Assembly: GCA_017531625.1 (NCBI GenBank)
Contig: JAFXKQ010000058.1
Location: 1-36,890, forward strand
Direction: 5' to 3'
DNA: 36,890 bases
Origin: Clostridia bacterium
GTDB taxonomy: Bacteria > Bacillota > Clostridia > Oscillospirales > CAG-382
Part shown: positions 1 to 35,443 of the stretch, piece after piece
Layout: every line of letters begins with the position of its first letter
Numbering within the stretch: the first letter of the stretch is position 1
Notes under the pieces: model-generated
What the model was told of the DNA's origin: nothing
The model's input: the letters and a program-made list of their open reading frames with translations, nothing else
Database searches by the model: none
Translations under genes and position numbers: made by a program

Positions 1-825
1 GTAGTCGGTGATCGGGTGAAATCCATAAGGAACTGTCGCAGAGAGGTCGTGGGTAACATCAACATTATACCACGCACCATCAATACACACCCGATTCCAT
101 GTGTGTTGAATACTGCGGTTTGTACGTGCATAGCCATCGACGACATAGCAAGGAATACCTTGGCTACGGCAGATGGCGGCGAAGAGGCAGGAGATATCGT
201 AGCACACTCCCGTTTTAGTCCGCAATGTTTTGCCTGTATCGGAATACTGATAAAGGCAATCGTAATCGTAGTCGTAGGTGATGTTTTTGGTCATCCACGT
301 ATATGCCGACATTGCCTTTTCTTCGTCGATATCGCCCGAGACGATTTCATCGTAAAAAAATGTATCCTCGCTTTTCCATAGGATGCCTGCACCATTGCCT
401 AGAGGATCCCGTACCGTTACCGAGAAGGTGATTCCCGTAATGACCAAAATGGCCGAAAACACCGATAGCAGCACGGTATTTGCGATTTTCGTTAAGGGCC
501 TATCCTTGCTGTTTGGACCTGCAATAAGATTCTTGGCAAGCAGAGCGCTTGATACAAAAACAATGTAAAATCCGAGTGGTCTTCTGCAGTAAATGGCGTA
601 AGTTATGGCAAGCAGTAAAACAAGTATATTCAGGGTGTAAGTCACTACTCGCAAGGGCTTTGACTTCATATTGAACAAGAGAAGACTTGTGCAGAGATAT
701 GACAGCACAAGAAAACATATGGGAAGGTTGCTGACGGTCAGAAAGCCCCGATATTGAAAGGTAACATAGCTATTTACAGCAATAAATACAGTAATTAACG
801 TAAGCCATATAAGCTTAATTTTCAT
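1..825 (-). CDS. Membrane-anchored transglutaminase-like domain protein (3' end runs off the window)
   Basis: Absent from the ORF track because there is no stop in the window. Hand translation from ATG at 825 (RBS GGAGGA at 832-837) gives MKIKLIWLTL..., several hydrophobic segments, then triad motifs GVCYD...HTWN...VDVT. Confidence 0.85.
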   Translation of the reverse strand, partial: MKIKLIWLTLITVFIAVNSYVTFQYRGFLTVSNLPICFLVLSYLCTSLLLFNMKSKPLRVVTYTLNILVLLLAITYAIYCRRPLGFYIVFVSSALLAKNLIAGPNSKDRPLTKIANTVLLSVFSAILVITGITFSVTVRDPLGNGAGILWKSEDTFFYDEIVSGDIDEEKAMSAYTWMTKNITYDYDYDCLYQYSDTGKTLRTKTGVCYDISCLFAAICRSQGIPCYVVDGYARTNRSIQHTWNRVCIDGAWYNVDVTHDLSATVPYGFHPITDY

Positions 826-844
826 AGAGAATCCTCCAAAAAAT

Positions 845-886
845 TTAAGCCATTTACACCAATTGCTTTAAGTGTAAATGGCTTAA
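845..886. repeat. Perfect 15-bp inverted repeat TTAAGCCATTTACAC-N12-GTGTAAATGGCTTAA
   Basis: Read directly. Each arm contains the TGGCTTAA motif also found at 954 and 973. Confidence 0.85.
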
Positions 887-1003
887 GATATTTTGGAACT
901 TTGCTCTTGCCATGCCCACTTAAAACCGTAAAAACATACATAATTACATAAATTGGCTTAAATTCGGCGTATTGGCTTAAGCTCTTTGGGGGTCTGAACG
1001 CCC

Positions 1004-1032
1004 CGAAAACCCTTTATTTATGCGGGTTTTCG
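1004..1032. repeat. 9-bp inverted repeat CGAAAACCC/GGGTTTTCG abutting the duplicated lysS tail
   Basis: Arms at 1004-1012 and 1024-1032. Confidence 0.7.
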
Positions 1033-1057
1033 TCAGTCAAGAGGTTTCATTGTGGGG
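1033..1057 (-). repeat. Duplicated lysS 3' end (att-like direct repeat)
   Basis: CCCCACAATGAAACCTCTTGACTGA matches 1755-1779 at 22/25. Both encode PTMKPLD* and the differences are synonymous. Confidence 0.92.
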
Positions 1058-1229
1058 CTCTACCGTTCCAAAGTCCGATAAGTTCGGGTAACACTCGATA
1101 AGTTTCGTTCTCAACCTCTATCATATTGCAAGTGGTCGTGATAACTTCCGATAAGTTAAGATTACGGAACATTTATTGGTTTAAACTGTGGTTTAAAATG
1201 GTTTAACCCCACTATACAAATATTGTAAT

Positions 1230-1628
1230 TTATCTGAGGACAAATTCAGAAATGGTTTTGCAAATCTCTTTGATATCAGAATCTCCCTTAAACTCAAACT
1301 TCACCTTGCCCACGCTCGAAAAATAAAGTTCCAACTCACAGTCTGCGGTGTGCTTATTCCAAAACATTTCACCTGCCCCGACGGTTTCAACGGAATATAC
1401 TTGTATTTTTGAATACGGCATAGATGTGTAGTCCTGTTTTGTACCAGTAAGTCCTTGTACATTTATAGAAATTATTCTTTTATTTGTAAATACAACCTGA
1501 TCTCTAAATCCTTTATATGTAGAAATTATTTTTTCATCCGACACAAGAATCGGACCAACCAACGGTTCTGCAACCGAATCAGAAACTTTTTTTAATTTAA
1601 AAAAAGTCGCATTATTAAAATCAATCAT
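1230..1628 (-). CDS. Bacterial PH domain protein (bPH_1-like)
   Basis: 132 aa with RD-x-VVFTNKRII...QGLTG...S-x-PY-x-KI...SVET signature. RBS GAGGAG upstream. Confidence 0.85.
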   Translation of the reverse strand: MIDFNNATFFKLKKVSDSVAEPLVGPILVSDEKIISTYKGFRDQVVFTNKRIISINVQGLTGTKQDYTSMPYSKIQVYSVETVGAGEMFWNKHTADCELELYFSSVGKVKFEFKGDSDIKEICKTISEFVLR

Positions 1629-1754
1629 TTTGCAAATCTCCTCTGCATTATAATCCTAAAATATCCTTCTTTTTGCATCACTTGGTTTAAATTTTGATTT
1701 AACCTTATTTAGCAACCCAAGATACCGTAAGATATCTTGGGTTATCGTAACTTA

Positions 1755-3263
1755 TCAGTCCAAAGGCTTCATTGTGGGGAACAAAAGGACATCTCTTATG
1801 GATGCGCTGTCGGTGAGGAGCATTACAAGACGGTCAACGCCGAAGCCAAGTCCGCCCGTAGGAGGAAGACCGTATTCAAGGGCGGTGATGTAATCATAAT
1901 CCACCTGTGCGCGGCAACCGGGTTCTTGTGCTTTTCTTTCTGCTACCTGACGCTCAAAGCGTTCCTTCTGATCGATGGGGTCATTAAGCTCGGAGAACGC
2001 GTTTCCGAATTCCGTTGCGTTGATAAAGTACTCAAATCTTTCGGTAAACGCAGGGTTTGAGGGTTTACGCTTTGCAAGCGGGCTATTCTCAACGGGGTAA
2101 TCATAAATAAACGTGGGCTGAATGAGGTTCTCCTCAACAAACGCGTCAAAGAACTCAACAAGGATTGCCCCCTTGGTCTTAACGGCGGGAAGCTCAACAT
2201 GCTTTTCCTTAGCGATGGCGATAGCCTCTTCGTCCGTAGCGATGGCGTCGAAATCAACGCCCGAATACTTCTTGACTGCCTCAACCATGGTGAGTCTTTC
2301 CCAATGTGAAAGGTCGATTTCCTTGCCTTGATAATTAATGTTAAGCGTACCGCAAACCTTCATTGCGACGGTCTTCATCATTTCCTCAACCAAGTCCATC
2401 ATGCCGTGGTAGTCGGTGTACGCCTGATAAAGCTCGATGGAAGTAAACTCCGGATTGTGCTTGGTGTCCATACCCTCGTTTCTGAAGATACGGCCAACCT
2501 CGTAGACCTTATCCATACCGCCTACAACAAGACGCTTAAGGTAAAGCTCGGTCTCGATTCTGAGCACCATATCCATATCAAGGGTGTTATGGTGAGTATA
2601 GAAAGGACGTGCAGAGGCGCCTATTTCAAAGGGAGTAAGAATAGGCGTATCAACCTCCAAAAATCCCTTGGAGTCAAGGAAAGAACGAAGCTCACGCAAA
2701 ATAAGAGAACGCTTTACAAAGGTATCCTTAACCTCGGGGTTAACGATAAGGTCAACGTATCTTTGGCGGTAACGCATGTCTGTATTGGTCAGTCCGTGAT
2801 ACTTTTCGGGAAGCGGGAGCAAAGCCTTTGAGAGGAGCATAATTTCCTTAGCGTGTACGGAAATTTCACCTCTGCGTGTGCGAAACACAAATCCCTTTAC
2901 GCCGACAATGTCACCGATGTCCCAGGTCTTAAACTCGGCAAAGGCTTCCTCACCTATCTCGTCACGCTTAACGTAGATCTGGATTCTTCCGCTGCCGTCA
3001 GCGATGTCAATAAAATTAGCCTTACCCATGTCACGCCAGGAAAGGATTCTGCCTGCGATGGAAACATCCTTTTCCTCAAACTCTTCAAACTTCTCCTTTA
3101 TGGGGAGAACCTCAGTAGTTCTCTCGTACTTGGTAATTTCATAAGGGTCTGCACCAACGCTCTTGAGCTTGTCAAGCTTCTGACGGCGAAGAAGCATCTG
3201 CTCGCTTAAACCTTGACCTTCTTCAACCATTTCTTCAACTGTATTATTAACGTTGTTGTCCAT
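1755..3263 (-). CDS. lysS: Lysine--tRNA ligase (class II)
   Basis: RYRQRYVDL, YEVGRIFRNEG, HNPEFT, YGLPPTGGLGFGVDRL, IRDVLLFP. Confidence 0.99.
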   Translation of the reverse strand: MDNNVNNTVEEMVEEGQGLSEQMLLRRQKLDKLKSVGADPYEITKYERTTEVLPIKEKFEEFEEKDVSIAGRILSWRDMGKANFIDIADGSGRIQIYVKRDEIGEEAFAEFKTWDIGDIVGVKGFVFRTRRGEISVHAKEIMLLSKALLPLPEKYHGLTNTDMRYRQRYVDLIVNPEVKDTFVKRSLILRELRSFLDSKGFLEVDTPILTPFEIGASARPFYTHHNTLDMDMVLRIETELYLKRLVVGGMDKVYEVGRIFRNEGMDTKHNPEFTSIELYQAYTDYHGMMDLVEEMMKTVAMKVCGTLNINYQGKEIDLSHWERLTMVEAVKKYSGVDFDAIATDEEAIAIAKEKHVELPAVKTKGAILVEFFDAFVEENLIQPTFIYDYPVENSPLAKRKPSNPAFTERFEYFINATEFGNAFSELNDPIDQKERFERQVAERKAQEPGCRAQVDYDYITALEYGLPPTGGLGFGVDRLVMLLTDSASIRDVLLFPTMKPLD

Positions 3264-3293
3264 AAAAACTGTTTCTCCTCTGTTTTGTTACAA

Positions 3294-3761
3294 TTACTTT
3301 GAAATACCTACAACTTCAACTGTCAGATTTCCGGTAGGAATCTCAACTACCTTGCTTTCGCCGATACGCATTCCGATGAGCGCCTTACCGATGGGGGACT
3401 CGTCAGAAATCTTGAGCTTAAGCGGGTCAGCCTCAGTAGAACCGACAATGGTATACTCGCATTCTCTGCCGTTAGACTTAACCTGAACTTTACAACCGAT
3501 GCTTACAGCGTCAGTCTTTATGTTCTTGTCGTCAAGAATAACTGCGTGCTTTATATTTTCTTCAAGCTGAGCGATACGGGTTTCAACCTCAGCCTGCTCT
3601 TTTTTCGCCTCATCATATTCGCTGTTCTCGGAGAGGTCACCGTACTCTCTCGCCTTCTTGATAGCAAGCTTAATTTCGGTACGTTTCACGGTTTTGAGGA
3701 ATTCAAGCTCCTCCTGCATCTTGTTAAAACCTTCCTGAGATACTACTACCTGCTTTGCCAT
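3294..3761 (-). CDS. greA: Transcription elongation factor GreA
   Basis: GDLSENSEYDEAK and ISDESPIGKAL. Usual greA-lysS order. Confidence 0.98.
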   Translation of the reverse strand: MAKQVVVSQEGFNKMQEELEFLKTVKRTEIKLAIKKAREYGDLSENSEYDEAKKEQAEVETRIAQLEENIKHAVILDDKNIKTDAVSIGCKVQVKSNGRECEYTIVGSTEADPLKLKISDESPIGKALIGMRIGESKVVEIPTGNLTVEVVGISK

Positions 3762-3876
3762 AACTGTGTCCTCCGTAAATTTATTGTTAATGATAAATCT
3801 ATTCTTAAGTTTTTATAAAAAGACGGTCAAACCGTGCCGACTTCAAAACCGAAAACCTCTAAGCTTAAAACTCCTG

Positions 3877-5214
3877 TTATTCACCGACTTCAAGCGCTTC
3901 AATAGCGGCTTGAAGCTGAACATCCTCTTCCATGGGAACCTTAAATCGGTCCACGCCTTCCTCAAACGCCTTTTCTATGTCGGGAACAATGCCATCACCG
4001 TTATAACCGTCGCTGAATGGAGGGTAATAATAACTGCTGGTAAGCTTGATTACGCCACCGTCGCTCAAGTTATAAAAGGACTGCATGCTTCCCTTGCCGA
4101 AAGTGGTTTCTCCCACTAAAACAGCCTTTTTGTAATCCCTCAACGCCGCCGCAAACAACTCGCCTGCCGAAGCGGTGGAGCCGTTTACGATAACAGCCAT
4201 GGGGGCATCAAGAATGAACTCTGCATCAGACTTAATCCCGCCTTCTTTGCCGTCCTTGTCCACCCAACGAATAATCGGACCTTCGGGAAGCAACATGTCA
4301 AGCACACTGCAAACAGAATTAAGATAACCGCCCGAATTGTTACGCACGTCAAAGATGTACTTTTCAGCACCGTCAGTCTTCGAAGCTTCTACGGCAGCCT
4401 TGAACTCTTCGGGAGTGTTGCTTGCAAGTCCTGTAATCTTAAAGTAAGCCACTTTACCGTCAAGCATCTCATACTCAACGGATTTGATTTCGTAATCGCC
4501 TCGGATTATTTCCAAAACAAGCTCTTCACTACCGCGTAAAACCGTAATCTTAACAGCGGTACCGCTTTCTCCGCTTATGGCTGCAGTCGCATTTTCTGCG
4601 CCTAACTCCTCTATGGAAGTTCCGTCAACTGCGGTAATGTAGTCACCGACCAGCACCCCTGCCTTCTCTGCGGGGGAATCCTTGAGCACCTGGTAAACGT
4701 AAATGGTGTCCTCAACCGAGTTAATGGAAACACGTACACCTATGCCTTTTTTGGAACCGTAGTTTCCGTCAATAAACTGCTTGCTCTCTTCAGCCGACAT
4801 GTACTGCATGTATCTGTCGCCCGAAGCGAAGGTGTAACCTTGAATTGCACCGTACAGCAGGTTTTCGTCATTGATTTCTCCTACGTAGTGCTCTCTCACC
4901 ACCTCGTCGATTTCAAAGAGAATCCCAAACCGTTCTTCCACGTCTTGGTACTTCTTTTCCGCCGCAACCAAGGCGTTGTTTACTGCTAGTCTTTGCGAAT
5001 CTGCGTAACGGTTGGTAAGGTAAATTCCGCAAACAAGGACGCTCACCACCGCAGTAAAAATGCAACTCCAAATGCAAGCGGTAAGGCTTACACTTCTGCC
5101 ATTTTTCGCCGAGCCGGAATCGGGCTCATGCTGACCGTCCTTGGTCTGTTCTTCGTTGTCTGCGTTTTCATCGGCGGCGGAATTCTCCGTCACCTCAAGC
5201 TTGTTTTCATCCAT
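3877..5214 (-). CDS. S41 family C-terminal processing protease (TM, PDZ, S41)
   Basis: GIGV PDZ motif, DVRNNSGG, TASAGE, GETTFGKGSMQ, GIVPD. Confidence 0.93.
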   Translation of the reverse strand: MDENKLEVTENSAADENADNEEQTKDGQHEPDSGSAKNGRSVSLTACIWSCIFTAVVSVLVCGIYLTNRYADSQRLAVNNALVAAEKKYQDVEERFGILFEIDEVVREHYVGEINDENLLYGAIQGYTFASGDRYMQYMSAEESKQFIDGNYGSKKGIGVRVSINSVEDTIYVYQVLKDSPAEKAGVLVGDYITAVDGTSIEELGAENATAAISGESGTAVKITVLRGSEELVLEIIRGDYEIKSVEYEMLDGKVAYFKITGLASNTPEEFKAAVEASKTDGAEKYIFDVRNNSGGYLNSVCSVLDMLLPEGPIIRWVDKDGKEGGIKSDAEFILDAPMAVIVNGSTASAGELFAAALRDYKKAVLVGETTFGKGSMQSFYNLSDGGVIKLTSSYYYPPFSDGYNGDGIVPDIEKAFEEGVDRFKVPMEEDVQLQAAIEALEVGE

Positions 5215-33715: not shown

Positions 33716-35443
33716 CTACGCTCTGTTTTTGATGTCGTCAAGAATCTTTGCAGAGATTTCGTCATAAGTCTTAACGCCCATGTCGCCGTCCTTCCAGGAA
33801 CGGATGCTGATGGTGCCGTTTTCAACTTCCTTATCACCGACAACGAACATGTAAGGCACCTTTTTAAGCTCGTGCTCGCGAATCTTGTAACCGATCTTTT
33901 CGTTTCTGTTATCAACCTCGGTTCTGACACCTGCAGCCTTAAGCTTTGCTTCGATGCCGGCAGCATACTCCTTAGCTCTGTCGGTAATGGGAAGAACCAC
34001 AACCTGAACGGGGGCCAACCAAAGCGGGAATGCTCCTGCGTAATGCTCAATCAAAACGCCTATAAATCTCTCGATAGAACCGAGAACAACACGGTGGATC
34101 ATAACAGGGCGGTGCTTTTCGCCGTCAGCACCGGTGTATTCAAGCTCAAACCTTTCGGGGAGCTGGAAGTCAAGCTGAATGGTACCGCACTGCCATGTAC
34201 GTCCGAGGCAGTCTTCAAGATGGAAGTCGATCTTAGGACCGTAGAAAGCGCCGTCGCCTTCGTTTATCTTGTAATCTCTGCCAAGGTCTTCAAGTGCGCC
34301 CTTCAAAGCGTTTGTAGCCATTTCCCAATCAGCGTCATCACCCATGTGATCCTCGGGCATGGTAGAAAGCTCGATGGTGTACTTGAAACCAAAGAGGGAG
34401 TAAACCTCGTCAATAAGACTTACAACGCCCTTAATTTCGTCTCTGATCTGTTCCTTAGTCATAAAGATGTGAGCATCGTCCTGAGTAAAGCAACGAACTC
34501 TCATAAGACCGTGGAGCGCACCGCTGAGCTCGTGACGGTGAACGAGACCAAGCTCGCCCATGCGAAGGGGTAAATCACGGTAGGAATGCATCTCAGACTT
34601 GTAAACCAAGATTCCGCCGGGGCAGTTCATGGGCTTTATAGCGAAGTCGGTTTCGTCGATAACCGTGGTGTACATGTTGTTCTTGTAATGACCCCAGTGA
34701 CCGGAACGTTCCCAGAGGTCACGGTTGAGCATCATGGGAGTAGAAATCTCTTTGTAGCCTGCCTTGGTGTGAATCTCACGCCAGTAGTCGATAAGGGTGT
34801 TCTTTACGATCATGCCCTTGGGAAGGAAGAAGGGGAAACCGGGACCCTCGTCCATCATCATAAACAAGCCAAGTTCTTTACCAAGCTTTCTGTGGTCACG
34901 CTTCTTAGCCTCTTCAACTGCTTCAAGATAAGCATTAAGCTCGTCCTTGGAAGCGAACGCCGTACCGTAGATACGCTGAAGCATCTTATTGTTGCTGTCG
35001 CCTCTCCAATAAGCTCCGGTGCTGGAAGTAAGCTTAAACGCCTTAACCTTCTTTGTGTAATTAACGTGAGGGCCTGCGCAAAGGTCAACAAACTCGCCCT
35101 GACGGTAGAACGAAAGTTCTGCATCCTCGGGCAAATCGTTTATCAATTCAATCTTATAAGGCTCGTCCTTCATAAGTTCAAGAGCGTCTTCGCGGGAAAG
35201 TACGCTTCTCTCAAGCTTAAGGTTCTCCTTAACTATCTTAGCCATTTCAGCTTCGAGCTTTTCGAGAACCTCGGGAGTGAAGGGAACCTCACAATCGATG
35301 TCGTAATAAAACCCGTTGTCAATAGCGGGACCGATAGCAAGCTTTGCCGAAGGGTAAAGCCTTTTAACCGCCTGTGCGAGAACGTGGGAAGCGGTATGTC
35401 TGAGAGCGTAAAGCTCGCTGTTCTTATAATCCTCCATTTTCAA
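33716..35443 (-). CDS. thrS: Threonine--tRNA ligase (short form lacking the TGS domain)
   Basis: LRHTASH, DLCAGPH, RDHRKLG, KPMNCP, FYGPKID, GSIERF. Confidence 0.98.
   Translation of the reverse strand: MKMEDYKNSELYALRHTASHVLAQAVKRLYPSAKLAIGPAIDNGFYYDIDCEVPFTPEVLEKLEAEMAKIVKENLKLERSVLSREDALELMKDEPYKIELINDLPEDAELSFYRQGEFVDLCAGPHVNYTKKVKAFKLTSSTGAYWRGDSNNKMLQRIYGTAFASKDELNAYLEAVEEAKKRDHRKLGKELGLFMMMDEGPGFPFFLPKGMIVKNTLIDYWREIHTKAGYKEISTPMMLNRDLWERSGHWGHYKNNMYTTVIDETDFAIKPMNCPGGILVYKSEMHSYRDLPLRMGELGLVHRHELSGALHGLMRVRCFTQDDAHIFMTKEQIRDEIKGVVSLIDEVYSLFGFKYTIELSTMPEDHMGDDADWEMATNALKGALEDLGRDYKINEGDGAFYGPKIDFHLEDCLGRTWQCGTIQLDFQLPERFELEYTGADGEKHRPVMIHRVVLGSIERFIGVLIEHYAGAFPLWLAPVQVVVLPITDRAKEYAAGIEAKLKAAGVRTEVDNRNEKIGYKIREHELKKVPYMFVVGDKEVENGTISIRSWKDGDMGVKTYDEISAKILDDIKNRA

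Follow-up and report, generated by a model that had tools for sequence, protein, structure and literature searches.

The 3′ end of lysS, the lysyl-tRNA synthetase gene, raises in one member of the uncultured gut Clostridia the question of how a segment of 722 bp comes to have both ends of an integrative element and a single gene, with no recombinase of its own. The locus lies in a stretch of 36,890 nt, hereafter the window, from Clostridia bacterium (CAG-382; assembly GCA_017531625.1, contig JAFXKQ010000058.1, positions 1-36,890, forward strand), which belongs to a metagenome-assembled genome (MAG; G000) of 1.41 Mb in 179 contigs that is 77% complete. The last 25 nt of lysS are present twice, and the DNA that separates the copy at the end of lysS (tail A) from the distal copy (tail B) is treated here, together with its tails, as the unit (Table 1). 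The unit is likely to be a derivative, of the type of the cis-mobilizable elements (CIMEs), of a lysS-specific tyrosine-integrase element or prophage, devoid of integrase and transfer genes, in which both ends and one gene have been kept.

The two tails, which start 722 nt apart, are identical at 22 of 25 bases, and both encode PTMKPLD* on the lysS strand with the reading frame kept; the three differences fall in AAG/AAA (Lys) and TTG/CTT (Leu) and are all synonymous. Both copies could be located as the initial annotation of this DNA had described them, with the identical 12-nt core CCCCACAATGAA on the + strand. The final 8 codons and the stop of lysS come from tail A. A degenerate pattern fitting both tails has two matches in the window and none in 100 shuffles (0/100), and it occurs at just these two places in the 1.41-Mb genome, in which the reversed control pattern has no match; the core CCCCACAATGAA likewise occurs twice in the whole genome. 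The tail repeats are far beyond chance and unique in their own genome. The GC content of the unit is 35.2%, as compared with 47.6% for lysS and a mean of 46.2% over the 105 contigs of the genome that reach 5 kb, and by this measure the unit looks foreign. No tRNA gene was found in window 1-4000, and an Rfam search of window 700-1900 returned no family at the gathering score.

Table 1. Features at the 3′ end of lysS, in coordinates of the window.
Feature	Position	Strand	Details
E2 (neighbouring element), left end	1-1032	-	Hairpin B 1002-1032; TTAAGCCA repeats 845-980; transglutaminase-like membrane protein gene 1-825
Tail B, attR-type junction of the unit, also the lysS tail of E2	1033-1057	-	Core 1046-1057; the other 13 nt are as in L067
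Distal arm, three direct CGATAAGTT repeats beside the core	1074-1157	+	Accessory-factor (Xis-like) candidate sites
Distal arm, three direct TTAAACCA repeats, spacing 10-12 nt	1176-1209	-	Orientation as at 1682-1711
Gene for a 132-aa bacterial PH-domain protein (bPH_1/DUF1696), sole gene of the unit	1230-1628	-	PF08000, E 2e-33, full length
lysS-proximal arm repeats, TTAAATCA and TTAAACCA on the lysS strand	1682-1711	-	Candidate arm-type integrase sites; direct repeat with 1176-1205
Hairpin A, 14-bp stem directly 3′ of the new lysS stop	1713-1744	-	Inverted repeat; RNA fold -21.1 kcal/mol, z -4.9, 0/200 shuffles as good
Tail A, attL-type junction	1755-1779	-	Core 1768-1779 and 13 nt of replacement lysS tail with stop, brought by the unit
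lysS (lysyl-tRNA synthetase, 502 aa), target gene	1755-3263	-	PF00152, E 1e-87; PF01336; 77% aa identity to L067 lysS

An exact scan of 185,579 species genomes with a 27-mer of hairpin B (window 1006-1032), the hairpin next to tail B, returned 30 loci (L061-L090). At two of them, L067 (JAZUQN010000196.1) and L079 (JAZOAL010000170.1), the hairpin, its flank and a tail of the tail B type join lysS directly, and the tail of L067, attached straight to lysS, equals tail B over all 25 nt. A four-way alignment reveals that, to the left of the core, the flank of tail A matches lysS of L067 and L079, and that, to the right of the core, the flank of tail B matches the DNA that follows lysS in both; the DNA to the right of the tail A core matches nothing in either genome, and the 697 nt separating the two tails are missing from both. 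As lysS is joined directly to tail B in L067 and L079, the 722-bp unit is an insertion, and the relationship between attL, attR and an unoccupied site has been shown for it. The comparison with empty sites that the initial annotation had suggested was in this way answered, in favour of its proposal of an insertion at the lysS 3′ end with an in-frame, synonymous replacement tail. The unit itself is seen in none of the relatives examined: a second tail copy is found in none of 17 lysS-downstream stretches of relatives (233 nt to 12.7 kb), and the closest lysS found, that of G540 (90% over the C-terminal 148 aa; 76% DNA over 1.08 kb; greA syntenic), is directly followed by a different element.

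The distal copy is not the displaced native tail of lysS, and on this point the earlier view has to be changed. Window 47-1057 is 92.7% identical to L067 (L067:2009-3019) and window 624-1057 is 94.2% identical to L079 (L079:4584-5017), while lysS is just 73% identical to either, and the step up in identity is located at the core. Given 93-94% identity against 73% for lysS, tail B and the DNA beyond it belong to a horizontally shared element, E2, and the comparison indicates that E2 has spread horizontally and recently. Since the distal tail belongs to E2, the unit is one member of a tandem array between lysS and E2. Either the unit went into a lysS/E2 junction or E2 went into the distal junction of the unit, and the data leave the order of arrival undecided. 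For annotation, the lesson is that a duplicated gene tail may be the tail of the next element and not the native end of an island.

E2 leaves the window at the contig start. Its transglutaminase-like membrane protein matches PF01841; the corresponding gene is reduced to 70 codons in L079, and in L067 an AbiEii toxin-family gene comes next in E2, followed by the contig end. The 2.6 kb of L067 beyond the transglutaminase-like gene has no match in the MAG, and none of the 163 other family genomes contains the arm pattern of E2. A 22-nt inverted repeat (838-893, 86% complementary), shortly upstream of the transglutaminase-like gene start, is built of two TTAAGCCA motifs; it has weak, sub-threshold Rfam hairpin matches only, and may be an operator or a further pair of E2 integrase sites.

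Between the tails, the repeats of the unit are arranged in two arms. The two repeats near lysS are of the TTAA[A/T]CCA type, the threefold TTAAACCA of the distal arm (1177-1206) is the sole such cluster in the 1.41-Mb genome, and the CGATAAGT copies start at 1076, 1096 and 1149, the CGATAAGTT repeat set stopping 16 nt short of tail B. The proximal arms of the unit and E2 can be aligned in their tail, hairpin and two TTAA[A/G]CCAA repeats, which lie at an equal distance from the core; TTAAATCAA and TTAAACCAA of the unit stand opposite TTAAGCCAA, which occurs twice in E2, and the arm repeats of the two elements differ by one base. In the distal arm, the repeat of the proximal arm returns three times with its orientation unchanged, and a second kind of repeat adjoins the core. 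Such an order is that of an attP of the lambda/Tn916 type divided between attL and attR, in which the TTAA[A/G]CCAA repeats are candidate arm-type integrase sites and the CGATAAGTT repeats are candidate accessory-factor sites. The earlier description of att-type ends with no recombinase gene agrees with these arms and with the lack of any PF00589 match in 1033-1779. Hairpin A is a probable terminator for lysS. It is very similar to the terminator that follows lysS in G005 (L022), where an ordinary gene lies 60 nt past the lysS stop, and the tail and terminator of the element may have been copied from a host of the G005 group.

The only gene of the unit encodes a PH-domain protein whose match to PF08000 scores 115.4 bits against a cut-off of 27.7 and covers profile positions 2-122 of 122. 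The protein also matches phrog_7115 (E 1.5e-37) and, in structural databases, PDB 3dcx and 3hsa. Pfam gave no match at E<=0.1 for the four further open reading frames (ORFs) of the unit (34-53 aa), in line with the earlier statement that just a PH gene and ordered repeats lie between the tails. A ribosome-binding site precedes the PH gene, and a scan with consensus promoters and terminators detected neither a promoter on the strand of the PH gene nor a terminator with a T tail. PADLOC assigned neither the PH protein nor the transglutaminase-like protein of E2 to a defence system. Homologs of the PH protein are encoded in 21 of the 401 genomes of the order, the MAG counted, and in none of the 20 other genomes is the gene beside lysS; the closest, in G014 (85% aa identity), lies in a different context, and the homology between the two genes ends at the ORF boundaries. 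In the phage collection, Lactococcus phage ul36 and derivatives of it gave the only matches, which are to their PH ORF; in ul36, a temperate phage, the homolog (L215, 1701-2075; 78% DNA identity over ~230 nt) is placed between the integrase and ORF355 in the lysogeny module. An origin of the PH gene as an att-proximal accessory gene fits the position of the ul36 homolog next to an integrase, and the cargo is probably a lysogeny-module accessory gene. More generally, bPH_1 genes may commonly be att-proximal accessory genes.

lysS is an integration hot spot in these Clostridia and is used also by integrase-carrying elements. The order lysS, tail, hairpin and short direct arm repeats recurs in 10 of the 30 loci with the 27-mer, and in 5 of the 7 of those that have at least 1.5 kb past the hairpin an integrase match follows right after, on the strand opposite lysS; the integrase of L065 carries PF02920, the Tn916-type arm-binding domain, and PF00589 by Pfam. 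At 6 of the 30 loci an orphan tail lies between two elements, by which tandem arrays are indicated. In G048:C6 the order is a 423-aa Tn916-type integrase, an M78 peptidase gene, a 200-aa ORF, a pair of CGATAAGTG repeats and, adjoining these, an orphan lysS tail, of which 22 out of 23 positions agree with tail B. Among the relatives, lysS is followed in G030 by a zinc-finger gene and then a 397-aa tyrosine integrase, ParB and a MobA-type relaxase, and in G035 by Xis-like DUF6462/DUF5348 genes. The elements of L065, L069, L076, L089 and G048:C6 share with the unit the core, the replacement tail, the hairpin after the stop and direct arm repeats, and they stand in tandem arrays with orphan tails as at the site of the unit; they differ from it in a 423-431-aa integrase with PF02920 and in other arm repeats, e.g., ATTTACCCAC.

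The 27-mer in hairpin B, common to 30 species, is found in several Clostridia families and always at the end of an integrative element. It lies beside a lysS tail at 18 of the 30 loci (12 at a real lysS and 6 at an orphan tail) and upstream of ychF with an adjoining integrase at 10 (Pfam check in L063); in L083 it is beside a tRNA-like sequence, and L074 fits no target class. A 31-nt copy of the hairpin (97%) lies beside tRNA-Pro in G013:C10. With respect to the lysS tail, the hairpin of E2 (window, L067 and L079) points the opposite way to that of the other 16 lysS-tail loci. A 27-nt hairpin exactly shared across lysS, ychF and tRNA-Pro elements of 30 species points to modular exchange of att-proximal sequence.

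Neither a recombinase for the unit nor a related unit emerged from the searches. PF00589 has two matches in the MAG, on the other contigs C115 and C112; no integrase gene near the unit is present among the ORFs of the window (36.9 kb), and a lysS-type, Tn916-like integrase query found nothing in a genome that is 77% complete and in which E2 is cut by the contig end. On C112 (G000:C112:1-760, L092), a partial tyrosine integrase gene at the contig start abuts the 3′ part of a tRNA gene; it represents a separate integrative element at a tRNA site of the same genome. The PH search of metagenome contigs returned 598 matching stretches, 454 of which are relatives, and the best 80 were kept; among these 80, the top identities are 83% and 79% and the rest are at most 64%. 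In viral contigs, an exact 30-mer of the E2 arm has no match, and a degenerate E2 arm pattern has 90 matches, of which 80 loci were scanned with no tail motif within 250 nt. GGTTTAA x3 has 34 matches in viral contigs, 32 in one group of similar contigs with GGTTTAA-type tandem repeats and 2 of another type, and none has the lysS-tail core within 150 nt before or 60 nt after it. The plasmid collection gave no match.

Support for the assembly comes from contigs of public runs, which cannot reveal circles or rare excision. Independent X1 and X2 contigs cover 493-1078 and 1056-1596 with 0 differences, and an X3 contig covers 1595-1780, so that tail B, the distal arm, the PH gene, the proximal arm and tail A are contiguous outside this assembly as well. 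One contig of X1 and X2 also links 715, within the transglutaminase-like gene, to 1240, where the final codons of the PH gene lie, and in it 40 different letters replace the 524 nt that separate these points in the window; this joint may represent a related arrangement that lacks tail B and the arms and has the PH gene beside the transglutaminase-like gene. A skip from 1057 to 1780 is missing from the 15 joints listed (3 more are unlisted), which is uninformative either way on excision. A 1215-nt X13 contig matches just 1682-1780 (91%) and differs on both sides, and in a second one 1759-1802 is linked through 13 other letters to sequence that resembles hairpin B and ends at 1022. On this evidence, ends of the tail A type may also be attached to lysS genes elsewhere or enclose different cargo.

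Taken as a CIME-type derivative, the unit can be given a plausible history. A tyrosine integrase would have recombined an attP-like site with the lysS tail, with crossover within the 12-nt core, and the 13 nt of synonymous tail, along with a terminator hairpin, would have come from the incoming DNA. lysS stays intact because the unit brought this replacement tail and terminator. A larger element would have lost all but its arms and one gene by internal deletion; as no parent element was found, we infer this deletion and do not observe it. An integrase, together with an excisionase, of E2 or of an incoming lysS-specific element could excise the unit as a 722-bp circle or move it along with its neighbour. 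By itself the unit would have no means of cell-to-cell transfer, and it could move only with an integrase supplied from elsewhere.

CIMEs and their site-specific accretion have been described for ICESt1/ICESt3-related elements of Streptococcus thermophilus, and accretion followed by cis-mobilization is the route of movement given for such elements (PMC5704250). In structure, the unit agrees with a CIME in site-specific accretion. It shares with the described elements a position between attL and attR at a housekeeping gene's 3′ terminus, the lack of integration and transfer genes, a tandem position with a related element of the same target, and movement expected just with the integrase of a neighbour or an incomer. 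At the present locus, the direct repeats expected from site-specific recombination are seen in the 25-nt repeat, its core and the flanks in L067 and L079, and no integrase, excisionase or transfer gene lies inside, bPH_1 alone matching Pfam. As for descent from an integrative and conjugative element (ICE), an integrative and mobilizable element or a prophage, the arm layout matches that of E2 and the searched sets hold no parent; as for accretion with an integrase-encoding relative, the tandem with E2 is shown, and the integrase of E2 is unseen where the contigs end. The unit differs from the S. thermophilus CIMEs in being far smaller (722 bp, one gene, no pseudogene debris), in its target, lysS and not fda, and in its host, uncultured gut Clostridia.

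The extreme 3′ end of lysS is a documented target of site-specific tyrosine integrases, as the initial annotation had stated: streptococcal ICEs insert there with direct repeats of 13-17 bp (Ambroset et al. 2016; PMC4701971). These ICEs have in common with the unit the use of short direct repeats and a target gene left intact, and they possess an integrase and a conjugation module, of which the unit has neither; their 13-17-bp repeats compare in length with a 12-nt exact core in a 25-nt tail here. Of the traits of a lysS tyrosine-integrase element, the unit has the in-frame replacement tail and lacks an integrase of its own.

The ccr-less pseudo-staphylococcal cassette chromosome (pseudo-SCC) units at the 3′ end of rlmH (orfX) in staphylococci resemble the unit in having no recombinase, in their gene-end repeats and in their tandem position with complete elements; unlike the unit, they depend on serine recombinases (Ccr) and are kilobases long. 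The unit is a very small example of known stripped-down mobile elements, not a new gene-capture system, and what is unusual in it is its size (722 bp, one gene), the completeness of its arms and the host lineage. It offers a clean, tiny case of integrative elements that decay and stack at a housekeeping-gene hot spot. If the cognate integrase were recovered, the unit would be a minimal substrate for the lysS-specific integrase sites of uncultured gut Clostridia and would also permit a test of the movement of mini-units in trans.

Several observations sit uneasily with descent from a larger element at this site. The genomes with unoccupied sites are of other species, with a lysS just 73% identical in DNA. 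The CGATAAGT repeats are oriented, relative to the tail, opposite to those of G048:C6, and neither the arms nor the ORF of the unit show decay, which is compatible with a very recent deletion or with selection for function. The arms, the tail motif, lysS and the transglutaminase-like gene are absent from all of the best 80 metagenome PH loci (0/80), and no parent with these arms was found in those loci, the 163 family genomes, phage records or plasmids. G422 and G423 each have one tail copy, and the integrase and distal end of E2 are unseen because contigs end. Finally, the X3 contig diverges exactly at 1780, with 19 further letters unlike lysS of the window, and none of the public-run contigs independently confirms that tail A is attached to the lysS body seen here.

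A more far-reaching explanation would regard the unit as a dedicated minimal cassette, an attP plus one gene that an integrase supplied in trans routinely excises as a 722-bp circle and inserts into lysS tails, the tails serving as an integron-like capture platform. Its ends are intact, with five TTAA[A/T]CCA-type and three CGATAAGTT repeats, its ORF is intact and full length, the space between the arms is free of pseudogene remnants, orphan tails in tandem arrays are known from the 6 loci mentioned above, and the single-base difference from the E2 arm repeats makes cross-recognition plausible. We nevertheless consider this explanation unlikely: the unit is a singleton with one copy in its genome, neither its ends nor its lysS site are shared by any of the PH loci (80 from metagenomes, 20 from genomes), the 30 loci with the 27-mer include no second small unit with two tails, the 77%-complete genome has yielded no lysS-type integrase, and all other lysS units seen are ordinary elements with integrase or Xis genes of their own. 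The suggestions of the initial annotation fare accordingly, as nothing shows that the unit moves (neither a second copy, nor a sibling, nor a cognate integrase was found in this 77%-complete genome) and the same ends were found around no other cargo, the 163 family genomes included. Its comparison with an integron cassette extends to the single gene, the missing recombinase and, in principle, a small circle that a tyrosine recombinase could excise in trans; it fails at the defining features, as the unit ends in direct lysS-tail repeats with lambda-like arms in place of attC, hairpin A is a plain stem, and there is no attI, no IntI and no cassette array but one unit only. That a 722-bp circle of attP and gene is at work today, entering lysS tails or element junctions through lysS-specific Tn916-type integrases in trans, seems to us a shade more doubtful again; if it were true, the stacked lysS tails of gut Clostridia would amount to an integron-like capture array built on lambda-type recombination.

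It might instead be supposed that there is no mini-element at all, the PH gene and its flanks being native to the region downstream of lysS and E2 having integrated at a secondary, core-like site ~700 nt on. The 13 distal bases of tail B are those of E2 itself, being identical in L067, so that just the 12-nt core would have to pre-exist, and hairpin A is similar to the terminator of lysS in G005, which belongs to the genus to which the MAG is assigned. A chance occurrence of an exact 12-nt core within 1 kb is, however, unlikely, with the core nowhere else in 1.41 Mb; the three and two TTAAACCA-type repeats that flank the PH gene mirror the E2 arm repeats and their positions, the GC content is 35% against 46%, no relative has a PH gene after lysS, and the G014 homology stops at the ends of the ORF, which together make a native origin improbable. 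An assembly artefact, in which the contig fuses DNA of two organisms at the conserved lysS tail, appears very improbable. The unit does lie within the first 1.8 kb of a MAG contig, the 44 nt over the tail A/lysS boundary (1759-1802) are also present in the X13 contig of another organism, and the X3 contig no longer fits the window at 1780. The X1, X2 and X3 contigs nevertheless support the sequence from tail B through tail A and limit the doubt to the attached lysS body, the two-tail unit would stand whichever lysS body is attached, and in tetranucleotide make-up the contig is a typical one for the MAG, ranking third among 59 contigs in closeness to their centroid.

Two minor observations concern lysS itself. 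lysS and thrS (33716-35443) of the window are 60-66% identical to those of the assigned genus of the MAG, as compared with 73-77% to the best genomes elsewhere; as both genes are closer to those of other genera, same-genus comparisons are of little use, and the genus placement of the MAG, or the history of lysS and thrS, deserves a look. In several relatives, the frame with the lysS match is 645-693 aa long, as compared with about 500-530 aa in most genomes, and in G030:C14, G049:C8 and G012:C1 it extends beyond the usual lysS end to a shared C-terminus, (H/R)IPAGAKL(Y/F); these extended frames may contain a fused C-terminal domain.

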